Shown: in pieces, positions 27,879 through 52,514 of the stretch
Layout: every line of letters starts with the position of its first letter
How positions within the stretch are numbered: position 1 is the stretch's first letter
From: an uncultured Nitrospiraceae bacterium
GTDB lineage: Bacteria > Hydrogenedentota > Hydrogenedentia > Hydrogenedentales > SLHB01
Length of the DNA: 52,984 bases
Direction: 5' to 3'
Assembly (NCBI GenBank): GCA_964493915.1
Contig: CAZBQH010000254.1
Span: 1 to 52,984, forward strand
The notes under the pieces: model-generated
What the model was told of the DNA's origin: nothing
Database searches by the model: none
What the model saw: only the letters and a program-made list of their open reading frames with translations
Made by a program: the position numbers and the translations under genes

Positions 27879-30128
27879 ATGTATCGGTACTCCGGCTATC
27901 TTCGCACGCTTCTCGAATCACCTGACGTTCAGGCCAGCGCCAAAGCCAAGAAGATCGTCTTCAATGCAGACGACCTGGCTCAATGGCACACGAAAGACAT
28001 CGAGTGCGAGCGCGAATGGAAAGGCCTGCCCGTGCATCGCACGCGACGGGAGGAAAGTGTCCGAATCTTGGGACGCTTCGAGGATGTGCGCCGCATCGAC
28101 AATCTCTCCGTTGAGGATGCGCGGTTTTGGGTCCCGCTGAGCACGCTTGGCGTCGAAGATAGTCGTCTTCCGATTGATCTGCGCACGTATCCCGTCGCAG
28201 AGATAACGTACCGGTGTACAAGTGATAATGCGCGGCCTGCTTGGGTTTTGTGTTACGAGGGAGGCGCGAAGTGGGATGGGCTGCACGAGACGCGCCGGTG
28301 GCGCACAATCGCGAGGTTGGTCCGCCACAATGCATTTCCGGATAAGATTGACAACATCATCCTGCGCCTCTATTCAGGCGTCCGCACAACGGAGTCTTTT
28401 GAGGTTTCATCAATCTGTTTCAGGGAGATGACGCCAGCGGAGGAGAAAGCGGTGCGCGCAGACGGCAGACGCATCAAGGGATGCGGCAAGCCGGCGCGTT
28501 ATCCTATTCTCGATGAGTTTATGCCCATGGGGGTATGCATGGACGCCGAGACAACGCGCCGGCTGGCCGAAACCTTGGGCGTGTCGTTGTCCGAGTACTG
28601 GGGACTTGCCTTCGAAGACATTGTCAGGCACCACCATAACTGCGTCTCCTTCGAGAACATTTCCAAGTTCAGCAAAGACGAGTGGCGCGAGCTCCTGGCA
28701 CTGGCGGACGCCTATCAACTGAAAGTGGTGGCTTCGCACGATTTCCCCCTCATGGACGACCCTCTGGATCAACGCGAGCTCATCGAGGAGGGCGTCAAGC
28801 CCTACGCCGACTCGCCGTCCCTATTGGCGTGGAGCCTCGAACATGAACCGCCGGAACACGAACTAAGCAACATCCTGCGAGCCCGCGGGCTTATGAGGGA
28901 AGCCGACGCCGAGCACCCTACGTTTGTTGTTACGCGTCAAACAACGGCGTTCCCGCTGTATGCGCCCCATTTTCCGATTGCCGGCGTAACGCATTACACG
29001 GGGCACTGCCCACTCGACATCGCCCCTATGGTTCAGGCGCACCTGCCTCTGGTGGGCGGTCAGCAGTTCTGGGTATTCGGATCTGGATTCACCTATGCCA
29101 CGGGCACGCCACCATGGAATACGTGTCCTGAGATGCGACTCATGGTGAACCTTGCCGTGGCCAATGGGGTGAGGGGTTGGTTTACCTTCAGCTATCATAA
29201 CGACCCAGTCTGGATAGGCGGGCGTTACCAGAGATCCTTGACAGGGCCTTTCCTGACTTTCAGCGATTTGTGGGCGGAACTTGACGAATCTATGGCCCTG
29301 TTCACCGCGATGGTCCCTCTCCTTTTACATGCGCGTCCGGCGCCTTTGCCCGAGATGCCGTACTTATCAAGCCAGCCGTCCGATGCGAAGAGTGCGCTGC
29401 CCCGAGGGGTCCCGCCGACAACCGCGACGCGTCTTGTAGGAGACGATTTCGAACTCTATTTCATCATCAGCAACACTACGGAAGGGATGATAAGTCTGAA
29501 TCTGGACATCTCTTCGCAGGATTTCGGCGGGCGCGAAGTGTATGATCTCACCGATTTTATCCATACCCGCCAGTGGGCAGGCATGCCGCGGCAACGTCAT
29601 CTCGAAATGTTCCCCGGTCAGGCCCGCATGCTGCTCGTGGCCGACGCAGAGACCTGCATTCATTGGCGCGACGTGGTTGCAAACCGCCTCATCGAAGACG
29701 ATCGGCGTCAACTCGCCTTCAATCTTGAGCTGGCTAAGGCATACGGTTTGGACGTAGCCATGGCCGAGCGCTTTCTGCATAATGCCACAACGGGAGACCC
29801 TTTGGCCGACCTCGAGACCATGGACAAAGCCAGCGACCTGCTTATCAACACAGTCTATGACGAACCCGCTATTTTCCAGGCGCGGAGCCACATTATCGAA
29901 GCGAGCGCGGCCGTTTGCGCCTGCGATGGCGCTCTCTGCCGTCTAATGAACCGCGGGAAAGTCGATCAAGCGCGGGAATGGGGCCTCAGGGTGGCACCTT
30001 TTGCCCGCGAGTTTACGACCCTGCGCCTCGAACTGCGCCGCGGCCAAGGATCCAAAGCGTTCAGCCACTGCGAAGGTCTCGCCAAACGTGCCCTGGCTTT
30101 GCTGAACGATATCCGGGCCAACGCCTAG
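27879..30128 (+). CDS. Uncharacterised 749-aa protein, probable glycoside-hydrolase-like TIM barrel
   Basis: Long ORF, no signal peptide; LLAWSLEHEP and PEMRLMVNLAVANGVRGWFTFSY resemble GH-type barrel strands (recalled pattern). Confidence 0.7.
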   Translation: MYRYSGYLRTLLESPDVQASAKAKKIVFNADDLAQWHTKDIECEREWKGLPVHRTRREESVRILGRFEDVRRIDNLSVEDARFWVPLSTLGVEDSRLPIDLRTYPVAEITYRCTSDNARPAWVLCYEGGAKWDGLHETRRWRTIARLVRHNAFPDKIDNIILRLYSGVRTTESFEVSSICFREMTPAEEKAVRADGRRIKGCGKPARYPILDEFMPMGVCMDAETTRRLAETLGVSLSEYWGLAFEDIVRHHHNCVSFENISKFSKDEWRELLALADAYQLKVVASHDFPLMDDPLDQRELIEEGVKPYADSPSLLAWSLEHEPPEHELSNILRARGLMREADAEHPTFVVTRQTTAFPLYAPHFPIAGVTHYTGHCPLDIAPMVQAHLPLVGGQQFWVFGSGFTYATGTPPWNTCPEMRLMVNLAVANGVRGWFTFSYHNDPVWIGGRYQRSLTGPFLTFSDLWAELDESMALFTAMVPLLLHARPAPLPEMPYLSSQPSDAKSALPRGVPPTTATRLVGDDFELYFIISNTTEGMISLNLDISSQDFGGREVYDLTDFIHTRQWAGMPRQRHLEMFPGQARMLLVADAETCIHWRDVVANRLIEDDRRQLAFNLELAKAYGLDVAMAERFLHNATTGDPLADLETMDKASDLLINTVYDEPAIFQARSHIIEASAAVCACDGALCRLMNRGKVDQAREWGLRVAPFAREFTTLRLELRRGQGSKAFSHCEGLAKRALALLNDIRANA

Positions 30129-33632: not shown

Positions 33633-34382
33633 TCAGGCCCCTAGAAACGCGATCTTCTCTTCGAGCAGATCCATTGTCGTGTTTGAGAATGCAAAGAAAC
33701 GGCTCAGTGCATGACCCTCCTCGCCCGGTTCGAGCGCGCCGAACGAGGGGGAACAGTGAATACAGGAAAACTCGAGGTTTGAGAACAGGAAAAACGGTTT
33801 GTCTGCCGTAACGCCGATGACGTCCTTCCCGTTATAGGCGCGGACAGCAAGAACTCCTTTCGGATAAAGCTCGGGTGTCGCTTGAAAAGCCTCAACGAAG
33901 TCGAGCGGACGCGGTTGTCCCTCGACGTACCAGAGCTGTATCGTCGGCCGGCGCGAATGGACGCGCGCGACAGACGTGATGGGCTTCCATTCGCCGTCAA
34001 GCAGCAGATAGGTCCGCGCCCCGTCGTAGTCGCCAAACTCGAGCACACGGCTCGGGTTCAGACAATTAAACGCGAACGATCCAGGCCAAGGTTCGGGGCC
34101 CAGATTCGTCAGGTGCATGGTCACGTCTACATGGTTCTCTGAAGGCGCCGCCTTAACGGAAAAGGCTAACACCCCCTCTTTGCGCCAGTCATAGGACCAC
34201 CCGCCGCCGTCTGCCGGCTCCCACGTGGGAGCGATCAACGTCTCGGGCGCCGCGCCCCAGACCGCTTTGCGGGTTGATCCGACGGCTTCGGGAAGGGTGT
34301 AAATGAACGGCCCGCTGGGCCACTTGTCCGAATGTATCGAGAGCGCCTGGCTCTGTTGCGCCGGCTTCAATGTAAGCGACAT
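33633..34382 (-). CDS. Hypothetical protein, beta-rich
   Basis: Open frame coupled to upstream gene; RBS GAGGAGG before ATG 34382 (ATG 34400 alternative). Confidence 0.75.
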   Translation of the reverse strand: MSLTLKPAQQSQALSIHSDKWPSGPFIYTLPEAVGSTRKAVWGAAPETLIAPTWEPADGGGWSYDWRKEGVLAFSVKAAPSENHVDVTMHLTNLGPEPWPGSFAFNCLNPSRVLEFGDYDGARTYLLLDGEWKPITSVARVHSRRPTIQLWYVEGQPRPLDFVEAFQATPELYPKGVLAVRAYNGKDVIGVTADKPFFLFSNLEFSCIHCSPSFGALEPGEEGHALSRFFAFSNTTMDLLEEKIAFLGA

Positions 34383-34396
34383 CGGCTGAATCCTCC

Positions 34397-35206
34397 TCAT
34401 TCCGCGTCCCGCGCGCAGCGGAAACCGAGATACTCTTGCTGATTGGAACTGAACTGCGTCATGCCCCTGTAGGCTGCCCGGAAAAGGTAGGGCTCGTGCT
34501 GTTTCCAGAACCCGCCCTTAACGACGTGGCAGGCTGCCGTATGAGGTGTGTTCGTCCACTCGCACACATTCCCGGCAAGGTCCATGACGCCGAAGGGGCT
34601 CGCGCCGGTCGGATAGGCGCCAACGGGTTTCATGCCTCGTCCATTGGGAACGTTTTCTCCATTGGTGTTGCAACGGGAAGGGTCCCATTGACGCCCCCAG
34701 GGGTAGGCAAAACCGTCGGGACCGCGCGCCGCGTACTCCCACTCCTCCTCTGTCGGAAGCCGTTTGGCGGCCCACTCCGCATACGCTTGCGCATCGAGAA
34801 TGTTCACCCGGACGACCGGGTGCGACGCGATGTCATCCAACTGCTGCATCACGTGACGAAGAAAAGACCATGGGTACTTCGAATCCTGCACAAACGCAAC
34901 GTACGCCGCATTCGTCACGGGATACTTGTCAAGGTAGAACGTACGAAGCTCGACCCTGCGCAACGGGAATTCGAGCGAGAACCAACTTGGGTGGACTGCA
35001 TACGTTTTTGACAGCACCTCCGCCTCGGCGGGGTCCGTCCCGATCACTGCTGTTCCACCCGGAATTTTCACCATCTCCGCGTCGGTCACATCCTGCGCAC
35101 GCACAGCTGCTCCAGCTCCTTTCGACGCCTGAAGACAGGCCGCTGCCGCGGCAGCCACGGAAGCACCAAATCTCCTGCGCGTCATTCCCTCGTTTTCTCT
35201 GCTCAT
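34397..35206 (-). CDS. FGE-sulfatase (SUMF1/EgtB/PvdO) domain protein, Tat-exported
   Basis: TRRRFG Tat motif; PVTNAAY, HPVVRV, RLPTEEEWEYAARG, YPWG, SPFGVMDLAGNVCEW, LGFRCA. Confidence 0.9.
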   Translation of the reverse strand: MSRENEGMTRRRFGASVAAAAAACLQASKGAGAAVRAQDVTDAEMVKIPGGTAVIGTDPAEAEVLSKTYAVHPSWFSLEFPLRRVELRTFYLDKYPVTNAAYVAFVQDSKYPWSFLRHVMQQLDDIASHPVVRVNILDAQAYAEWAAKRLPTEEEWEYAARGPDGFAYPWGRQWDPSRCNTNGENVPNGRGMKPVGAYPTGASPFGVMDLAGNVCEWTNTPHTAACHVVKGGFWKQHEPYLFRAAYRGMTQFSSNQQEYLGFRCARDAE

Positions 35207-38388: not shown

Positions 38389-38418
38389 TTGACGCCAGAC
38401 AAGTTAAGAGTCTATGAT
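38389..38418 (+). promoter_or_regulatory. Putative promoter of the giant surface protein
   Basis: TTGACG-N18-TATGAT. Confidence 0.55.
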
Positions 38419-38648
38419 TCACGTCATTGAAGGCTGTTTTCCCGGTTTGGGGTACAACGCGTGGGAATGTGCCCGCCGCAGGCGAGGCGCCCCTGCCAAC
38501 AGGGGATATCATGAACAATCGAGGGGTAGTTTCCGAAGGCTCCAGCGAGCAAGCGCGCTGGACGCGTCTGTGCTCTTGCCCAAACACGCAGTGGACTCGG
38601 GTCGTCAGGGTACACCACCGAGCATCTAGCAGGAGGAGTGTTGGCGTT

Positions 38649-41600
38649 ATGAAGAAATGTGCAGTTCTGCTCGTTCTGGCCTTGGCCTTTTATGTTGGCT
38701 TCGCCGCAGAGGCCAGGGATGCGAAAGACAATTGCGGTTCTCACTTCTCCCAGCCGCCCGAGGTGCCAGACGCCGCGAGTCTGCTGACGGCGGCAGGTTA
38801 CGAACCGAGCGCCTGCGAGGTGCTTTTGACGTGGTACGAGGCGCCCCCGAGGGGCGGCGGCGACTTGGTGTTCGGTTTCCGGGTCCGAGATGCCCAAGGC
38901 GAGGAATTCACGCTCTGGGCCGACAGTACGGGCGAACTGCTCAACGACGTAGCCCTGTCTCGACTGGGCCTGGTCCAACGGAGCTGGACCCAGGAGCCCC
39001 GGCAGAAGGCTTGCGAGCCGCCTTCGAACCTTTACGCGGCGAAGGCTGTCCCCCAAGTAATGCCGGCGGGGGTGCGGTACTCGGCGGCCCCTTCGCTTTG
39101 TATCGACATGCCTCTCCTCGACGTCGCAGCGCTTCAGGCGGAGAATCCTTCAGGGGACGGCCCCTGCTTCCACGCAGAGCGCATCGGCGTGACCCAGCAG
39201 ATGCCGGAAAGCCTTGTCCTATCAGGTGGGAGAGCATTCCAAGGCGCGTGGCAGTCCGTAGGGGGTGGCCGGCTCTGGGCGGCAACCATCCAAGCCGCGG
39301 ACGCGGTGGCGCAACGTATTCACTTCCAGAAACTCGCCCTGCCGGCGGGTGTTCAGGTGCTTGTCTACGACGCTGCCGATCCCGGCGAGGTCTATGGTCC
39401 TTATACCGGTCCTTACGGAGACGACAGCGACCTCTGGAGCGCCGCTTGTTTCTCTCAGGAAGTGACCGTCGAGTGTTTCGCTCCTGCAGGTACAAACCTT
39501 GCGGGTCTGGAAGTAGTTATAGACCAGACGCTTTTCATCTATGCCGACTTGAACAACCTAGCCGCCGCGAAACAGGCCGGCGACTGTCATAACGACTTGA
39601 CCTGTTTCCCCGAGTGGGCGGAGACGGCCACCGGCGTAGGCGGCATATCCTTCGTCGCTGACGGGCAAGGCCTTTGGTGCACAGGCAGCCTGATCGCCGA
39701 CACGGACCCGTCGACGCGCGTGCCGCTGTATCTCACGGCGAACCATTGCGTCTCGACGCAAGAGGCGGCGGCGACCATCGCGTTCTTTTGGCTGTGGCAG
39801 ACCAGTGTATGCGACGGCGACCCGCCCGATATTGCGACAGTGCCGCGCACGACGGGCGGCGCGACGTTCCTTGTTGGCTCGGTGTCTGTCTTGAGCGAGA
39901 CCGAAGACCCTGGGGTGGACCTGACCCTCTTGCGCATGCGGCAGAGCCCGCCCAGCAATCTGGCGTTTCTGGGCTGGAACACCCAACCTTGGCCGTTGGG
40001 AACAGACACGACCTGCATCCACCACCCGTCTGGTGATTACAAACGAATCAGCTTCGGCGTCTTGTCCGCACGTGGCATCTGTTTTCCAGTACCCCCGTCC
40101 GACCTCTACTGGGAGGTTACCTGGCAGTCGGGCGTGACCGAGACAGGATCTTCCGGCAGCCCTCTTATGCTCTCGGACACGCAGGAGATAATCGGACAGC
40201 TCTGTTGCGGCTGTTCCTCCTGCGATCTGCCGGACCAAACGGATTTCTACGGCCGTTTCGACAAGAGCTGGCCGGTGGTAGAGCCCTTCCTCGGCGACTA
40301 TGACGGCGACGGCATCCCCGATTCGGTCGAAGGCGACGGCGATGCGGACGGCGACGGCATTCCGAATTATCAGGACACGGATTCGGACGGCGACGGCATT
40401 CCGGACAGCGCCGAAGGGACGGCCGACCTGGACGGAGACGGCATCCCGAACTACCTTGATCTCGACTCAGACGGCGACGGCGTTCCGGACAGTGAAGACG
40501 TGTTCATCATCTATGTTGACAAGAGCAACACGTCAGGAAATGAGGACGGACTGTCGTGGGCAACTGCTTTCACGACGCTTCAGGAAGGCGTGGACCTGGC
40601 CCAGGGTTTTCTGCTGTCTGAGGTTTGGGTAGGCGCAGGCGTTTACGACGAGGCGCGTGCCGCGACGGACGCGTCCGGCGCCTTGGTCCTTTACGAGCGC
40701 GTCAATATGTATGGCGGATTCGAGGGGAACGAGGTTCTTCGAGATCAACGCGACTGGGAGAACAATGTTACGGTCATCGACGGCGGAACAGCTCGCAATA
40801 GCCAGCCGGCTTACCATGTCGTGATTGGCGCCGACGACGCCCGCCTGGACGGATTCACAATTCGCGGGGGTCATGCGACAGGTGCAGACGGCGCCGAAAC
40901 AGGCTTGGGCGGCGGGATACTAAACGTCGCGGCCTCGCCCATTGTGGCGAATTGCCTGTTGGAGGGGAATCAGGCGGTCGAGGGCGGCGCAATGTACAAT
41001 GCAAATGGTGCCGCACCGCAGATCGTCGAGACAGCTTTCCGGAGTAACCGTGCCGACATGGGCGGCGCCATGGCGAACCATGCTGCAGCTCCCTTGCTCA
41101 TCGACGTGCTTTTCGACGCCAATGAGGCGCAGCAGGGTGGTGCTGTAAGCGAGATCGCTGGAAGTGCAGGCCGCTATACCAGCTGCCGGTTCATGGACAA
41201 CGCCGCATCCCTGGGCGGCGTCCTCTATGCCGACAACGGTTCCCCCGTTGTTGAGCAATCAACTTTCGAGGAGAACTCAGCGATATCAGGGGGCGGCGCG
41301 TTGTTTGCTACAGGCAATGCCGTGCTGGAGGTCAACCAGAGCATCTTCAAGGTGAACAACGTTTCGCTCGGCGACGGAGGGGCCGGGATGATCCGTTCCG
41401 GAGCGGCATTGAACTTGAACGGGTCCCGGATTGAACACAACGAGGCCGACAACGGCGGCGCCTTCCGCGTGCTCGACGCTACGCTTGATGCTGCCGAAAC
41501 GTCTTTCACCGGCAACCAGGCGCAGAATGCCGGCGCTATCGATGCCGAGGCGGCCGCGATCAACCTCACACGCTGCTATTTCTCGGGTAATGAGACTACA

Positions 41601-44600
41601 TTGGGGCAAGGAGGGGGCGGGGCCGTTCATAGCCGCGGCGGAACACGTGCAACGATTGCACGCAGCACTTTCGTATCCAACTCGGCCTTGGGCGACGGCG
41701 GCGCGCTGTGCAACAACGACGCGTTGGTCGACATAACTAACAGCGTGTTCGCGCTGAATCTCGGCCAGCGTGGCGGCGCCTCTTTCAGCACGCAAGCAAG
41801 CATCGAGATCGTTAACAGCTCATTTTCTGGCAATGCGGCGCAACCCGGTTGGGAAGGCGGGGCGCTCCATATGCTCGATGCGACGGGCGAGATCCGCAAC
41901 AGCATTTTCTGGGGCAACAGCCCTGAGCAGATCTTCAGCGACGAAAACAGCTCGACTGTGGTCGAGTACACTGACATTCAAGGCGGCTTCGCAGGCGCCG
42001 GCAATATGAGCCAGGACCCGCTCTTTGTGAACGCGGCTGGAGGGGACTTGCGCATCCTTGCAGGCTCGCCGGTTATAGACCGTGCTACCGAACCTGCGCC
42101 GCCTTATGATCTCCCCGGAGTACCTAGACCTCAAGGCGCGGCCCCGGATATGGGCGCCTTCGAGAACGCAGGACCCGACACAGACCTGGACGGACTGCCC
42201 GACGGCCTCGAGGCTGGAGAAGGCACCGACCCGGCAGTTCAGGATGCAGCCTTGGGAATTACCCTCGATGCCCCAAGCGACAATGCCCATTTCCGCGCTG
42301 TCCCAATCAGTTTCATCGGCACGGTCGAGAGTGCCAATATTCTGGACGTACGGCTCAGCACGGACGGGGGAGCTACGTTTACCGAGCTCTGCAATTTGGA
42401 CGGCCTGACTTGGGCGCGCCTCTGGACACCTCCGGGTCCTGGTGTCTATGTCGTCCAAGCACAGGCGCTCAACCGTTTTGGCGGCTCGACCGTGAGCGAC
42501 ATGGTTACGGTCCACTATGACCCCGGCCTACCGGCCGCGGCGATCAGTTCTCCGTCTCGCAACCAACATATCCAAGGCGCCGTGCCGATCCGCGGCACAG
42601 CCAGTTCAGGTCCCTTTGGCTTCGGGCATTATGCCCTCGATTTCGGCTTGGGCGCCGACCCAGCGGCGGTGACGCAATGGACTTCGCTGGCGGCGTCGTA
42701 TGTGCCGGTCGACGAGGGTCTGTTGCTCGACGCTTGGGACGTGTCCACCCTTACGGACGGTTTCTATGTCTTGCGCCTCCAGGTGCTTGACGAGACCCAT
42801 CTGAAAAGGGTCGAGACGACCATGCCGGTCATCGTTGACAGCGACATGACGGCTCCGGCGCCCCCGGGCGAGATAGCTATACGAGGCGATAGACTGCCCT
42901 TTATGGTGACCAGTGGGAATACGGTCCATGTCACGGGCTTGGCCCCGGCAGGAGCCGTGCTCGCACATGCTACGTTACTGGACAGCGACCGGCTCGCTCT
43001 CGAAGACATCACCCCCATGCTGACAGTACACGGCAACGGAAGCTTGCGAGGGAGTTTCATCGTGCCTGAAGCCCTCGTAACAACCGCTCTCTCCATCGAG
43101 GTGGTCGTGAAAGATGCCATGGGCCATCTCTCAGCGCCCAAGCAGTCCAACACGCTTCTGGTGGATAATGCTCCGCCTACGGTTACCATCGCGTATCCGG
43201 AAAACGGGGCGATGGTCCCTCTGGCCCCGGGCACAATCTATGGTTCCGCCCTCGAGAACGGCCCGGCGGGGCTTGACGAGGTGTCCGTCTCCATTGACGG
43301 CGTAGACGGCATCGCACAGGGCACGGAATACTGGTCCTTCTCCTGGACCCCTTCGTCGACGGGAACGAAAACGGTTGCGGTTACGGCCACGGACGTTCTG
43401 GGCAACAGCACGACAAAGATTGTCCAATGCGGCGTTAATGACACGTACCCAGCGGCTTACCTGACCATTCCCAATCACGGAATGGTTCTCAACGAAGGGC
43501 AAGTGCTCGAGATTACCGGTACCGCGCAGGATCCGGTCGATTTCGTGGGCTACGGCGTACGGATCGCGCCGGGAGCAGACAGCTCGGGCCCATGGACCAA
43601 TCTTACGGAGTGGCTGGAAACGACCGCGGTTGTTGACGATGTCTTGGCCACGTGGGACACGACAGGCCAGCCCCTCGGGCTCTACACCATCCAATTACTG
43701 GCGGTGGACAACGGCGACCACAATGTCGTTATCAACGTGGTGGTTCAGCTCCGCTCCCGGCTGAGCCTGGCCGGCTTACCGGATATCATCCTTCTGGTAA
43801 ATGAGAAAAGCCTGGGCGACATCCACTTGCCGGACTATACGACGTTTCTCGCTCCCCCTGCACCCGGAGCTGTAGGACCCATCAGCTACTCGATTGTGAA
43901 CGTCACGGACCCGTTTGTCGACGTCGCCATTGATGTGAACAACGATGTCAACATCCGGCCGGCACCTAACTGGGTCGGTTCGGCAGCAGTAACCGTACGG
44001 GCCACCGACGGCATCTATGCAAGCGAGGACACGTTCAATGTGATCGCCTTCTCAACGCGAAACCCGGACAGCGATCTCGACGGCATCCCGGACAACCTCG
44101 AGGGATCGGAGGATGCCGACGGCGACGGCATACCCAACTACCTGGATGCCGACTCGGACGGCGACGGCATCATTGACGGCGTCGAAGGTCTGGGCGATGT
44201 GGATGGCGACGGCATCCCGAACGTTTTCGACCTGGATTCCGACGGCGACGGCATCCCTGACGAGGTCGAGGGCGTCGTCGATGTAGATGGCGACGGCATC
44301 CCGAACTTCCTGGATATGGACTCCGACGGCGACGGCATCGGGGACGCGGTCGAGGGAACCGTTGACAGCGATGGCGACGGCACGCCGGACTACCTCGATG
44401 CCGACTCCGATAACGACGGCATAGCAGACGCCGTCGAGGGCTCTGGCGACGCCGACGATGATGGAATCCCCAATTATCTCGACCTGGATTCCGACGGCGA
44501 CGGCATTCCTGACGAGGTCGAGGGCGCAGGCGACACCGACATGGACGGCGTGCGCAATTTCCTCGATACTGACTCCGACGGCGACGGCATCGATGACGAA

Positions 44601-46781
44601 GTCGAAGGAACAGACGATCCTGACGGCGACGGCATTCCCAATTACCTCGACGCCGACGCCGACGGCGACGGCATTCGCGACGAAACCGAAGGCGCAGGCG
44701 ACACCGACGAAGACGGCATTCCCAACTACCTTGACACCGACTCGGATGCCGACGGGATCCCTGACGAAGTCGAAGGATCGGCCGATATAGACGACGATGG
44801 TCTGCCCAACTTCATCGATGACGATTCCGACGGCGACGACATACCCGATGAAACCGAGGGCCTGGTCGATACCGATGGGGACGGTGTTCCGAACTACCTG
44901 GATACCGACTCCGATGGCGACGGTATACCTGACGGCGCCGAGGGGACGGATGACGCCGATGGCGACGGCATTCCGAATTACCTCGACGGCGACAGCGACG
45001 GCGACGGCATATCCGACGAGCTCGAGGGAACGGATGACGCCGATGGCGACAGCATCCCAAACTACCTTGACGAAGACAGCGACGGCGACGGGATCCTGGA
45101 CATCGACGAAGGCATCGACGATGTTGACGGGGACGGAGCGCCCAACTATCTCGATGGAGATAGCGATGATGACGGCCTGCTTGACATGGACGAACTGGCC
45201 CTCGGAACGGATGCCTACAACCCTGATACAGACGGCGACGGCATCACGGACGCTCTCGAGCTCACTTATGGGACCAACCCTCTCGAACCGGATACGGCGC
45301 CTTCCTTGGCCGTTACGCCGGATGCGCGCGACGTAGGTGCACGAACTGGCTCGACAACATTTGACGTCATGAACGCGGGCGACGGCGTGTTGACGTGGAC
45401 TGCCCAAGTGATCGACGGCAAGTCGTGGCTTCGGATTCTTACCGGGGCAAGTGGGCAGAATGATGGGGTCATCACGTTGAGCTTCTCCGACAATACGCTC
45501 ACAACCGAGCGGATTGGCACAGTCCAAGTGGAGCCCATCAATGAAGCGCTCGGCGATCCCATCATCGTCAGCGTTGCTCAAACGGCCTGCGTGATACCGG
45601 CGGCCCCGGCTACGGTCTCGGCTTCTGACGGAACCTTCCCAGACCGGGTCCGGGTAACCTGGAGCCTGGTTGAGGACGCAGACAGCTATCTTGTGTATCG
45701 GGCCACAACGGATGAGCCGGCGGATGCGATCCTACTGACGGTCGCACCTGTCCTAGGCACAAGCTTCGACGACACTTCGGCGGCCAGCCCGAGCACCGGG
45801 GCGGGTTGCTTCCCGCAGCCCGTGACCACAACCTACCGTTACTGGGTCGTGGCGCAGAGTCCGTGCGGCTCGAGCCCGTTGACCGTTTCAGACACGGGTT
45901 TTGTAGGCAATGAAGAAAGCGACAAGGTCTATGCCAAGGTCTTGCCGTCTGTAAAACTCGAGAATGGGCTGATAGCCGTTCAACCCGATTCGGCACTGGC
46001 CATCCGCTTGCGTGCCGACAATACCATCGATCCAGCGAGCGTGTGGGGCGTTGTGAGTTCCTCGACGTTGGTGTCGGAAGCCGTCGTCTGGGTCCCGACG
46101 ATCGCTGAACCGCTTACGGACGGCTGGGTAGTTTACCAGCCCGAAACAGCGTGGCCGGTCGGCGAGGTTGTCACGATGACGGCCGGCGGGGCTCTGGCCG
46201 ACGGGACGCCCCTCGTTCCCATCGCCTACGAGTTCGAAGTAGTGGAAGACGCGGCGGCGGTGCAGCCCATCTGGCAGCCGCCACACAGCGAGATCGGGGA
46301 CGGTCTGGCGCTTAAAGACCAGGCCAATCTGGTCGTGGTCAGCGAGCAGGTCCAAGAGGGATTGGCCCTCCTCGACGCGGCGGTTGGACCGGCCTATTGG
46401 ATCGGACCCGAAGAGGTCTTCATGACGCCGCAGCAAGTATGGCTGCCAGTCCCTGAAGACGTGAATCCCGAGAGGATTCAGGTGTTCTACCATCTTGAAG
46501 GCGAGACGCCCAAGTGGCATCCCGCCGAGGACGTCGAGGGCCTGTTGGCTGCCCAGGATTACCTTGTGCTCGACGTCAACGGGGTAGCATACCTCGGGTT
46601 CGTGGTGGAGCACGGCGGCGTCATGCAGCTCGGACTTCCGATGGAAAGCAGCACAGCGCCCGCACCGGCGTCGTCCCTGCCCATGCGTCCCGCCAAGGGA
46701 GACCTGCTGCTGCTCGGATGTGTGATCGCCGTCCTCTTCCTAGTAAGTTGGAAGCGCGACAAGACGCGTATTACTCGCTAA
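38649..46781 (+). CDS. Giant (~2710 aa) cell-surface multidomain serine protease: lysyl-endopeptidase-like S1 domain, TSP3-like Ca-binding repeats, beta-helix, Ig-like, BACON and FN3 domains, C-terminal TM anchor
   Basis: RBS AGGAGGAG and signal [22 protein letters not shown]; CTGSLI, TANHC, DLTLLR, IHHP.GDYKRIS, GSSGSP; GGA-x-N beta-helix repeats; [22 protein letters not shown]; DxDxDG arrays; C-terminal [20 protein letters not shown]. Confidence 0.9.
40296..40499 (+). repeat. Coding 84-bp (28-aa) DxDGDG repeat, 2 full units plus partial
   Basis: [28 protein letters not shown] / [28 protein letters not shown] / [12 protein letters not shown]. Confidence 0.9.
44067..45158 (+). repeat. Coding tandem array of 13 x 84 bp (28-aa TSP3-like Ca-binding units)
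   Basis: Unit [28 protein letters not shown] counted 13 times with no indels; 13x84=1092 bp matches coordinates. Confidence 0.95.
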
Positions 46782-50599: not shown

Positions 50600-51193
50600 G
50601 TGAGCCAATCAAGGCGATTCGATTATTGGGCTATTCCGAATCTTCTTCTATGGCTCATTCTGCTGATCGCGGGTTTTCTTCCGGACAAGACGTTCGAACA
50701 GCTGCGCGAATGGGGCGATGTCCGCATGACGAAGGCATGGGTGAACTCGCCAAGCATGCTGATTCTCGCGTGCCTGGCCTATCTCGCGTTTTTCACCTAT
50801 CAACGGTCGCGAGAGGCCGGCCTGGACGCAGACGACGCCTTTGCACGGGCGCTCCACGTGACGCTGGTCGCTCTTGTTGCGTTTATGCCTGCGTCTTTGA
50901 CTATCGAACTGTTGTTGCGTCTTCGCTCGATTCCGCCGACTTACAGGCGGTTTGTCTATTTTGTTTCTGTTGCGAAAACCGGGGCCTGGCTCTACCTCCT
51001 AGGCCTCATTGTCCGCTATTACTTCTTGCAGCGCGAAAAGGTGTTTAGAGATATGTTCACCTTCTTCCCGCTTTTCCGGCAAAGAGCCGACAAGCAAGTT
51101 GCAGAAGATGGAAAGGGCAAAGAACCAGAGCTTCCTACCGACCCGCTGGCAACGAACGAGTCTTCGAAACCTCCTGCACGGCGAGAGCCGTAG
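50600..51193 (+). CDS. Hypothetical membrane protein (about 4 TM)
   Basis: Four hydrophobic segments and a charged C-tail; GTG start after AGG. Confidence 0.75.
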   Translation: MSQSRRFDYWAIPNLLLWLILLIAGFLPDKTFEQLREWGDVRMTKAWVNSPSMLILACLAYLAFFTYQRSREAGLDADDAFARALHVTLVALVAFMPASLTIELLLRLRSIPPTYRRFVYFVSVAKTGAWLYLLGLIVRYYFLQREKVFRDMFTFFPLFRQRADKQVAEDGKGKEPELPTDPLATNESSKPPARREP

Positions 51194-51296: not shown

Positions 51297-52514
51297 ATGG
51301 ATATGAAAAACCGATTCGCCGTCTACCTGGTTCTTGTTCTTTCTTCGTTCTTGACAGGCGCCGTTCTTGCCGAAGGCGCTCTTCGCCTCGGTCAAGCCTC
51401 AATTGCCGGAGACACGGTAACAATTCCCGTCACACTTCAAGGGGACGTCGGTACGGGCGTGTCAGCTATCGGGTTCGAGCTCAACTACGACCCCAGCGTC
51501 TTTGAGCCGGTCGCGGCGCAGCCAGGAACGGCGGCCACAACTGCCGACAAGGATGTCCAGGCTAATATGACCGAACCGGGCTCATACCGTGTACTAATGG
51601 TCGGCTTTAACACGAACACGTTAACCGATGGCGAGGTGGCCCGCATCACGTTGAGCCGCGTAGGCGATCCCCCAAGCGGCCGTTCCGAAGTGCGCATCAG
51701 CAACACGAGCATGTCCACGGCCGACCCGGTCATGGAGATTCCCTCGACTGGCAGCACAGGAGCGATTGCATTCACCGACGTCCCCTCGGAAGATCCTGTC
51801 GACGACGAGCCCGGCGATAGGCCTTCTTCCGCCAATGACAGGGACGAAAGCACCCAGCGTCGGACTACGCCAGACCAGCAAAGCCAGAACTCTGAGGAAC
51901 AGCCAGTCGTTGCTACAGAGGCAGACCCCAATGAGACAGGGGCACCGGCGTCTCAGGATGAGGGGCAACGCATTGTTACGGGAAGGCTGCCCGTGACGGA
52001 CGTCGATTCCGGCGTCGGTGAACATGGCGTAAGCACAACGCGCTCAGGCACGGGCACGCCAACCTCCAGGCGCCAGAGCACGACGAGAGGCGAGGCCTCG
52101 ACTTCAGTTGGAAGCGGTGCCAAACGCCTGTCTTCAGCAGTAAGCGCTGCCGACGCTGTCCGCGCGGGGATTCGGACGCCGGGCAGTCCCTTGTCTATGG
52201 ACACGGAGGCGACGCCTGATACAGGGGCGCCTCAGACCGCGGAATCCGATGTAAACGAGAGCGTAGCTTCAGAACAGCTAGCAAAGGGTGCAGAGAAAAC
52301 AGGGACAGCGGCCGACAAAACCTTAGCCGCCGTGTCGCCCTCCGCTGAACCGGGTCTCGCAGCTCCAGTCGGTATAGCTGCCGATGCCCCGCCCACGAAG
52401 CAGACTTCTGATAAGGCAGAGACGAAAGGCCGAGCGCTGAAGATCGCGATTGTTGGGGCCCTCGTGGTACTGGTTGTCGCGGTCTTCTTTGTGAGAAAAC
52501 GGCTGTTTGCATAA
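51297..52514 (+). CDS. Cohesin-like domain protein with long Ser/Thr/Asp linker and C-terminal TM anchor
   Basis: Signal peptide; VTIPVTL...VSAIGFELNYDPSVFE cohesin pattern; tail IAIVGALVVLVVAVFFVRKRLFA. Confidence 0.78.
   Translation: MDMKNRFAVYLVLVLSSFLTGAVLAEGALRLGQASIAGDTVTIPVTLQGDVGTGVSAIGFELNYDPSVFEPVAAQPGTAATTADKDVQANMTEPGSYRVLMVGFNTNTLTDGEVARITLSRVGDPPSGRSEVRISNTSMSTADPVMEIPSTGSTGAIAFTDVPSEDPVDDEPGDRPSSANDRDESTQRRTTPDQQSQNSEEQPVVATEADPNETGAPASQDEGQRIVTGRLPVTDVDSGVGEHGVSTTRSGTGTPTSRRQSTTRGEASTSVGSGAKRLSSAVSAADAVRAGIRTPGSPLSMDTEATPDTGAPQTAESDVNESVASEQLAKGAEKTGTAADKTLAAVSPSAEPGLAAPVGIAADAPPTKQTSDKAETKGRALKIAIVGALVVLVVAVFFVRKRLFA

Follow-up and report, generated by a model that had tools for sequence, protein, structure and literature searches.

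A giant gene for a tethered protease in Hydrogenedentota

The window analyzed in this work is the entire 52,984-bp contig C254, from the genome bin (5.58 Mb, 613 contigs, 94.5% complete) of an uncultured Hydrogenedentota bacterium. Its forward strand contains a frame free of stop codons between positions 38427 and 46781, in which an open reading frame (ORF) of 8,133 nt starting with ATG (38649..46781) codes for a protein of 2,710 amino acids (aa), called here the giant protease. A preliminary description of this DNA had presented the ORF as a tethered protease-adhesin, and matches to Pfam and NCBIfam models agree with the order of parts given there for most of them. Taken together, the data make it fairly probable that the gene encodes a genuine envelope protein of a diderm host, namely a lysyl-endopeptidase that is tethered to a membrane and would end up displayed at the cell surface. 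The features of the locus are the following.

38389..38418, +, putative sigma-70-like promoter TTGACG-18-TATGAT (10/12 consensus match only)
38425..38648, +, untranslated leader of ~225 nt with AGGAGG at 38631-38636
38649..38714, +, signal peptide, residues 1-22 (hydrophobic window; cleavage site judged by eye)
38715..39572, +, propeptide, residues 23-308: N-terminal pro region and a Lysyl_endopep_N-type beta domain (~200-308; weak PF27052 match), last residue K308
39573..40292, +, S1 serine protease domain of the lysyl-endopeptidase type, residues 309-548 (H366, D424, S502 and the S1-pocket Asp in QTDFYGR)
40293..40523, +, short thrombospondin-type-3 (TSP3) Ca-binding array, residues 549-625, with 5 DxDxDG motifs (TSP3 motifs at 550-620)
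40524..42173, +, right-handed beta-helix of Chlam_PMP (GGA-x-N) repeats, residues 626-1175 (choice-of-anchor Q at 42048-42164)
42174..44066, +, immunoglobulin (Ig)-like region, residues 1176-1806 (~630 residues; Big_7 at 1510-1578, a weaker copy near 1295, remainder beta-rich)
44067..45293, +, long TSP3 Ca-binding array, residues 1807-2215 (409 residues, 32% Asp, no Lys)
45294..45578, +, BACON-like domain, residues 2216-2310 (BACON_2)
45579..45908, +, conserved Cys-containing beta domain, residues 2311-2420, common ahead of the anchor in many family members
45909..46643, +, ectodomain of the anchor module, residues 2421-2665: two Ig-like beta-sandwiches (model described below)
46644..46781, +, tail: linker with SSLP, Gly-Asp boundary motif, transmembrane (TM) helix, basic KRDKTRITR and stop codon
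46793..46839, +, hairpin like an intrinsic terminator, between convergent genes (perfect 10-bp stem, 19-nt loop, then TTTATTTG)

The ATG lies 12 nt 3′ of the AGGAGG sequence. A TTG codon at 38427 that would lengthen the ORF was rejected, as it offers neither a signal peptide nor a ribosome-binding site, and the gene calls of JGI give 2,710 aa like the ATG.

The gene was present in more than one assembly. Its 90% cluster has three members, all of 2,710 aa, which come from one NCBI metagenome-assembled genome (MAG), JGI 3300001533 and JGI 3300077563, on contigs of 52,984, 54,399 and 25,915 bp. The two JGI copies differ from the window gene at 2 and 3 nucleotides, and their flanks are syntenic. 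The repeat units of the arrays are 69-76% identical at the DNA level, and a BLAST search of the gene against the genome yielded no repeat match above 76%, either within the gene or on other contigs; the locus thus contains no long exact repeat that could lure an assembler. For the C-terminal 209 residues, an orthologue with 84% identity is present on a separate contig (L023) from a metagenome.

The N-terminal unit is a lysyl-endopeptidase homologue

The protease domain matches Trypsin_2 at residues 344-516 with 32.8 bits (cut-off, 27.6). In a phmmer search with residues 301-550, solved lysyl endopeptidases were retrieved with E values of 8.5e-26 (PDB 4nsy) and 3.6e-21 (1arb, Achromobacter protease I). 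The His/Asp/Ser triad that had been read from the sequence proved intact: H366 (TANHC), D424 (DLTLL) and S502 (GSSGSP), at 39744, 39918 and 40152, align with the catalytic residues of the solved enzymes, as do all six Cys residues that form their three disulfides. The Asp of QTDFYGR aligns with that of RSDYYGR in Achromobacter protease I, and it is conserved in relatives. We take the latter residue in 1arb to be the S1-pocket Asp225, which selects Lys. On the basis of these alignments, the protease is a homologue of the lysyl endopeptidases (Lys-C/Achromobacter protease I; MEROPS S1), whose fold family, triad, disulfides and pocket Asp it shares.

The region ahead of the protease also follows the pattern of those enzymes, with a long N-terminal propeptide that includes a Lysyl_endopep_N domain, and with a Lys where the pro and mature parts meet. 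The signal peptide and propeptide had been predicted in the preliminary description; the N terminus is indeed hydrophobic, and the propeptide region, for which a weak precomputed match to PF27052 was recorded, is conserved in paralogues and in relatives. PF27052 was also considered as the anchor family and was rejected in that role, as it is Lysyl_endopep_N. K308 is five residues ahead of the first Cys of the mature domain, and in relatives a Lys is found 4-6 residues ahead of it. A Lys at this junction fits self-activation by a Lys-specific enzyme. Thus, the pre-pro-lysyl-endopeptidase probably activates itself by a cut after K308 and would then cleave its substrates after Lys, enzymatic activity and Lys specificity both being predicted from homology.

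Differences from the known enzymes are also clear. Identity is ~30%, and a CCGC cluster precedes a conserved Cys. The known enzyme is freely secreted from a precursor of ~650 aa, whereas here ~2,160 residues and a membrane anchor are added behind the protease. The whole protein contains only 26 Lys in 2,710 aa (0.96%; the genome median is 3.0%), and the long TSP3 array contains none. This scarcity is a suggestive hint that the protein is protected from its own protease.

Calcium-binding arrays and a beta-helix separate the protease from the membrane

Both Ca-binding arrays have a period of 84 nt (28 aa), with two Ca motifs per unit in the long array. The short array comprises 2.4 copies and the long one 12.1 copies, so that the 13 units initially counted for the latter were about right. 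The TSP_3 and TSP3_bac models gave 41.2 and 30.9 bits, respectively (cut-off, 25), and a regular expression located 29 Ca motifs in the protein. With bound Ca2+, the 409-residue array should form a long acidic spacer.

Between the arrays, Pfam identifies Beta_helix and Chlam_PMP repeats at about 830-1010, and choice_anch_Q (NF041518) matches residues 1134-1172 with 39.6 bits (cut-off, 25). The long GGA-x-N beta-helix with a choice-of-anchor-Q-like end was therefore described correctly; the label of lyase-like that went with it is without support, because the helix shows no lyase signature. Many paralogues of this beta-helix are encoded in the same genome. It shares its repeats and the NF041518 match with chlamydial Pmp and choice-of-anchor Q proteins, but it is internal, between protease and Ig domains, and there is no autotransporter beta-barrel. 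Neither Pfam nor NCBIfam detected an autotransporter domain in the giant protease, whose C terminus consists of two Ig-like domains and one helix. This Pmp-type beta-helix is most likely ligand binding or adhesive. The several Ig-like domains expected downstream of it are represented by the two Big_7 copies.

The C-terminal cassette belongs to a large family centered on the phylum

The C-terminal cassette begins with the BACON-like domain, which scores 23.4 bits with BACON_2 at 2220-2299, slightly short of the cut-off of 25, and 14 bits with BACON. A paralogue on contig C263 is 44% identical, and clear BACON domains precede the anchor in relatives. The next region, 2311-2420, had been called FN3-like; no model matches it, and that designation gives way to the conserved Cys-containing beta domain common to family members. 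Apart from the signal peptide, the only strongly hydrophobic stretch of the protein is the helix 2681-2702, followed by KRDKTRITR. The TM tail of the preliminary description is thus present, but the ~250-aa domain ahead of it, listed there as unknown, is a member of a large anchor family.

A full HMMER scan of residues 2421-2710 against 1.84 billion representatives retrieved 418 clusters at E <= 1e-3, 89 of them at E <= 1e-30, with proteins of 183 to 5,429 aa; a word-indexed search with the excised C terminus had returned only 3 proteins. In 145 of 149 cases the module ends at most 40 residues from the C terminus of the protein. Twenty-two genome loci of the module were gathered with an alignment of 6 closer sequences, and 18 of these 22 named loci are labelled Hydrogenedentota or Hydrogenedentes. 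A profile built from 15 family members matches 45891-46772 at E = 3.3e-109. We then turned to 61 related genomes of the same order: the module is present in 43 of them, in 1 to about 20 copies each, on ORFs whose lengths range from about 100 to 6,838 aa, contig-end fragments being the shortest. In one genome of the same family, G016, 44 half-module matches correspond to about 20 or more anchor proteins, compared with 1-8 in most relatives; it would be the best genome in which to seek any processing enzyme.

The passengers of the anchor are diverse. They include PKD/REJ arrays (3,300-3,400 aa), CotH with lamin-tail (LTD), Peptidase_S8 with a P-domain, BACON and Cohesin, and a further set comprises FG-GAP, TSP3, NHL and Peptidase_C13. 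The family consensus contains LAxRLRS..IDPxSVWG, DGWVVYxP, PQRVWLPVP, YYYH..G..GWYPAE.VEGWLVPDSYL and YLGFLVRHGGVVQLG, and the motifs DGWVVY, PQ(R/Q)VWLPVP and YLGFVV(R/E)HGG are found in the giant protease. Neither Pfam nor NCBIfam holds a model for the anchor module or its tail.

Structure prediction with AlphaFold2 from a single sequence (residues 2307-2710) was unusable, with a predicted local distance difference test score (pLDDT) of 40, and an alignment of 34 sequences from the fetched loci was needed. With it, the anchor was modeled with a pLDDT of 88 and a predicted template modeling score of 0.78, with two sandwiches, which span about 20-111 and 143-242, and a helix from 263 to 289. 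A Foldseek search of this model against PDB returned only generic tandem-Ig structures (Fabs, erythropoietin receptor; best E = 1.8e-3, template modeling score <= 0.24). The anchor thus represents an unmodeled, phylum-centered family of ordinary fold, and all other modules of the giant protease come from known families. Because the module belongs to this large family, the tether is a standard part in the phylum and not an oddity of one gene: Hydrogenedentota put a C-terminal cassette of ~500 residues on many different extracytoplasmic proteins, and it ties the cargo to a membrane.

Several observations concern the loci themselves. Typical Hydrogenedentota anchor proteins are encoded in three MAGs that bear the label "uncultured Nitrospiraceae" (L001, L003 and L021; binchicken co-assemblies). 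Synteny links L021 to the Hydrogenedentota loci L004, L015 and L016, and the Nitrospiraceae label may be wrong. At L005, L006, L013 and L017, an ORF of 1,100-1,700 aa lies upstream of BACON-anchor proteins, and at L005, L006 and L017 one to three tandem paralogous ORFs of ~330 aa are also found upstream, so that a conserved surface-protein operon may exist.

A probable fusion of parts that relatives join by cohesin-dockerin docking

Relatives of the first 548 residues occur in 58 of the 61 related genomes, with up to 45% identity, often as tandem pairs, and in ORFs of 490-1,250 aa. In these genomes, the protease-unit ORFs typically end in Dockerin_1, as seen in several orthologues. A paralogue encoded in the same genome as the giant protease, outside the window (C310:9359-11182, +), of 590 aa and with 45% identity in the S1 domain, has the same ending. 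Since this paralogue and most orthologues end in Dockerin_1, the dockerin-tagged form of the protease is the usual one in the lineage.

The complementary module is found on the anchor, as cohesin is fused to it in L004, L018, L021 and P0276. The window itself contains a 405-aa Cohesin protein (51297-52514, +) whose C terminus is a plain TM helix followed by a basic tail, whereas in other Hydrogenedentota the cohesin is borne by the double-Ig anchor. This protein is a possible docking partner of the dockerin-bearing protease paralogue.

Because the cohesins of relatives carry the anchor and the proteases of relatives carry dockerin, the giant protease appears to be a direct fusion with no need of cohesin-dockerin docking, i.e., a covalent version of the same arrangement. 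Like display on cellulosome-type scaffoldins, the docking of the relatives would be noncovalent. The giant protease has neither cohesin nor dockerin and is one polypeptide, and its cargo is a protease rather than a glycoside hydrolase. This is evidence of the fusion type that anchor and protease act in the same place.

The architecture had been called unusual, and we did not find it elsewhere. Among 5.8 billion proteins, only 5 others longer than 1,490 aa contain the protease unit, and none has the remainder of the giant protease; the fusion is absent from all 60 related genomes. A search for homologues of the whole protein was swamped by TSP3 repeats and was uninformative on architecture. Within reach of our searches, the fusion is unique to this population. 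The five other long proteins, P0122 (Bryobacteraceae, 1,613 aa), P0123, P0124, P0125 and P0126 (1,571 aa), share Lysyl_endopep_N and S1 at the N terminus, with 27-36% identity confined to the protease unit. They have other passengers and sorting signals (PPC domains, type A tails of the type IX secretion system [T9SS]) and are without the TSP3 stalk and the Hydrogenedentota anchor. P0126 also has a beta-helix behind the protease, but it ends in a T9SS tail.

The C-terminal tail has the layout of a sorting signal

The extreme C terminus of the giant protease has a tripartite layout of motif, TM helix and basic cluster. Among 99 tails of the family, G occupies position -2 in 63% and D/N position -1 in 74%, right before the TM helix. 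The linker is of ~23 residues, often with AS(V/I)LP, and a mean of 4.7 Lys/Arg residues lie beyond the helix. In the orthologue fragment of L023, the Gly-Asp motif is identical although the TM residues have changed. None of the known sorting-domain models matched the tail, while a control PEP-CTERM tail from the same genome scored 31.5 bits.

The genome encodes 2 Omp85 proteins and 7 secretins, as fits a diderm. Sec would export the giant protease by means of its N-terminal signal peptide, and the C-terminal helix, with its positive end inside, would anchor the protein in the inner membrane, N terminus out. Since the host is diderm and the TM helix first anchors in the inner membrane, arrival at the surface needs a processing step and an export step. 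The tail would act like other motif-TM-basic sorting signals, with cleavage at the membrane boundary and lipid re-attachment. A type II system would carry the protein over the outer membrane, and the protease would end up tethered at the cell surface.

Precedent for such a route comes from VesB of Vibrio cholerae, an S1 protease that also has an Ig domain and ends in a tripartite tail, which needs its tail, rhombosortase as well as a type II secretion system (T2SS) to be displayed at the surface (PMC6219818). VesB is cut by rhombosortase, lipid modified and exported by the T2SS and stays at the surface; tail-less VesB is released (PMC6219818). Common to both proteins are the signal peptide, propeptide, S1 protease, Ig-fold domain and tripartite tail (a motif of small residues, then a hydrophobic helix and a basic end), a diderm host with type II secretins, and the occurrence of tail-less variants in the family. 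The giant protease is ~7 times longer, its Gly-Asp motif follows a 240-aa double-Ig module where VesB has a Gly/Ser-rich stretch, and it has neither a GlyGly-CTERM match nor, in the 61 genomes, a rhombosortase above the cut-off. The likeness is therefore one of layout only. By this analogy, the tail might work like the GlyGly-CTERM of VesB in surface exposure and tail processing.

We regard it as possible, at somewhat less than an even chance, that the tail is a processed sorting signal, whose enzyme was not found among the candidates tested. More tentatively, the ~280-residue cassette could be the recognition unit of an undescribed Hydrogenedentota protein-sorting pathway, in which a membrane enzyme would cut at the Gly-Asp boundary, after which an outer-membrane translocon would take over the cargo, to be attached again on the surface of the cell. 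If this were true, proteases, cohesin scaffolds, PKD adhesins and the giant fusion would all be displayed alike, and family members without a tail would be released freely.

Two further groups of tails were observed. An anchor subfamily with YYYHP...VRHAGIVQLG.P (L007, L008, L012, L020, L022, L029, L034 and L035) stops behind the second Ig domain and has no TM tail. In L008, L012 and L020, real stop codons inside the contigs lie right behind this domain; members of the subfamily may be released forms. A second unmodeled tail class, present in at least 15 ORFs of the genome that encodes the giant protease, reads G(T/S)DPLDP..S.PG(L/M)P(V/L)AG, followed by a TM helix and RRR. Examples are on C488 (702 aa), C68 (650 aa), C363 (640 aa), C27 and C2, often on beta-helix paralogues, and no NCBIfam sorting-domain model matches this class at the cut-off. 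PEP-CTERM tails and two exosortases are also encoded in this genome.

Weighing surface display against alternative explanations

There is good support for identifying the protein as a Lys-C-like protease that is tethered in the envelope and borne on a Ca stalk. Of the proposal in the preliminary description, the Sec-exported protease, the C-terminal membrane tether and the long Ca-repeat spacers held up, but display far from the cell would depend on the processing step considered above. A role in foraging or biofilm remodeling, also proposed there, is a guess.

A number of findings weigh against a surface-displayed lysyl-endopeptidase. At the level of the enzyme, the position of His210 in Achromobacter protease I is occupied by Cys, and strict Lys specificity is therefore not assured. 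Other large acidic secreted proteins of the genome are equally Lys-poor, which makes Lys scarcity a nonspecific sign of self-protection. The three assemblies are 99.97-99.99% identical and sample one population, so that they are not fully independent. As for a sorting system, none of the 61 genomes has a match above the cut-off of the rhombosortase model TIGR03902, the rhomboids found being generic ones only. Sortase (PF04203) occurs in 1 of 61, which is not this genome, and the LPXTG model does not match the tail. Exosortase is absent from 12 module-bearing genomes, including the closed G047. No neighbor gene is conserved across the 22 anchor loci. This genome encodes only one module-bearing protein, which is unusual for a dedicated sorting system. 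Finally, 27% of family members lack the TM tail, and the Ig pair may thus have a role of its own.

The genome distributions led us to reject sortase, exosortase and rhombosortase as processing enzymes. With regard to the known signals, PEP-CTERM/exosortase was discarded because TIGR02595 does not match the tail and exosortase does not track the module. GlyGly-CTERM/rhombosortase fits in layout, but the Gly-Gly model does not match, and the distribution of TIGR03902 argues against it.

These findings bear on another explanation, that the giant protease is a plain type I inner-membrane protein whose helix is an uncut stop-transfer anchor, the entire ectodomain remaining in the periplasm or at the inner membrane and the protease acting there on envelope proteins. 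The failure of the tail to match any sorting-domain model while the PEP-CTERM control does, the lack of a sortase, a rhombosortase, a consistent exosortase or a conserved partner gene, the single module substrate in the genome, the outer membrane of the organism and the equally plain TM tail of the window cohesin protein all agree with it. Yet a periplasm would hardly accommodate an ectodomain of ~2,650 residues that includes a beta-helix, 8 or more beta domains and ~490 residues of extended Ca repeats, and the cargo found on the same anchor (cohesin, PKD arrays, CotH, subtilase) is of a typically extracellular kind. Moreover, the boundary Gly-Asp motif, kept in about 60-75% of the 99 tails and in L023, would not be needed by a mere hydrophobic anchor, and its conservation weighs against one. 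We consider this explanation unlikely.

Alternatively, the stalk might be a delivery vehicle, from which the protease cuts itself off (e.g., after K539 or K625) to act as a free enzyme, while the rest stays behind as an adhesin. Achromobacter protease I provides a precedent, as both the N- and the C-terminal extension of its precursor are removed, and single Lys residues, K539 and K625, follow closely on the protease and on the first TSP3 array, the long array being Lys-free. However, the strong Lys depletion of the whole protein favors protection of the stalk over a programmed cut, K539 falls within the protease fold by alignment, and the protease of relatives stays joined to its dockerin and would be docked, not free. 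Self-release is accordingly quite improbable.

Lastly, an assembly artefact, in which the similarity of their TSP3 arrays led two or three genes (for a protease of ~600 aa, a beta-helix protein and an anchor protein) to be merged in frame, would account for a fusion seen in none of the 60 relatives, whose protease units occur in ORFs of at most 1,250 aa, and for domain boundaries that fall at repeat arrays, but is scarcely credible given the same ORF and neighbors on three contigs with 2-3 nt differences, arrays only 69-76% identical to one another and to other contigs, and the orthologue fragment L023 found elsewhere.

Significance of the anchor family

Hydrogenedentota are an uncultured phylum placed by the literature in microbial mats and digesters; the material studied here comes from sediment metagenomes. 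The gene described here points to a phylum-wide C-terminal anchor cassette without a model in current domain libraries, and it links three previously separate elements, Lys-C-like proteases, cohesin-dockerin docking and the anchor. A profile of the cassette would let annotators recognize the surface proteome of the phylum and, through phylogenetic profiling, would provide a handle on a processing enzyme, should one exist. Lys-C, to which the Ca-stalk-borne protease itself is distantly related, is in wide use in proteomics.

What is new is the anchor family and this protease-anchor fusion; the parts are otherwise ordinary. Metagenomes often contain giant mosaic surface proteins, and the individual domains here are of ordinary kinds; we therefore regard the finding as useful rather than startling, and the anchor family and its cohesin-dockerin link outweigh the gene itself in interest.

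Expression signals and neighborhood of the gene

A promoter, a leader and a terminator of its own had been proposed for the gene, and a promoter-like site, the leader and a terminator-like hairpin were seen at the coordinates listed above. The leader has no match to an Rfam family, and its fold is not better than that of shuffled sequences (z = +1.1); a riboswitch or other structured leader was rejected on these grounds.

The genes near the giant protease encode HisRS, a LacI regulator, an FGE-sulfatase protein, GH116, a GH43-like protein, an oxidoreductase and the cohesin protein. No transport genes adjoin it, as stated in the preliminary description. Three ORFs of the window have no Pfam match at E <= 1e-3: 27879-30128 (+, 749 aa), 33633-34400 (-, 255 aa) and 50600-51193 (+, 197 aa). 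A relative of the 749-aa ORF adjoins an anchor protein in L008.

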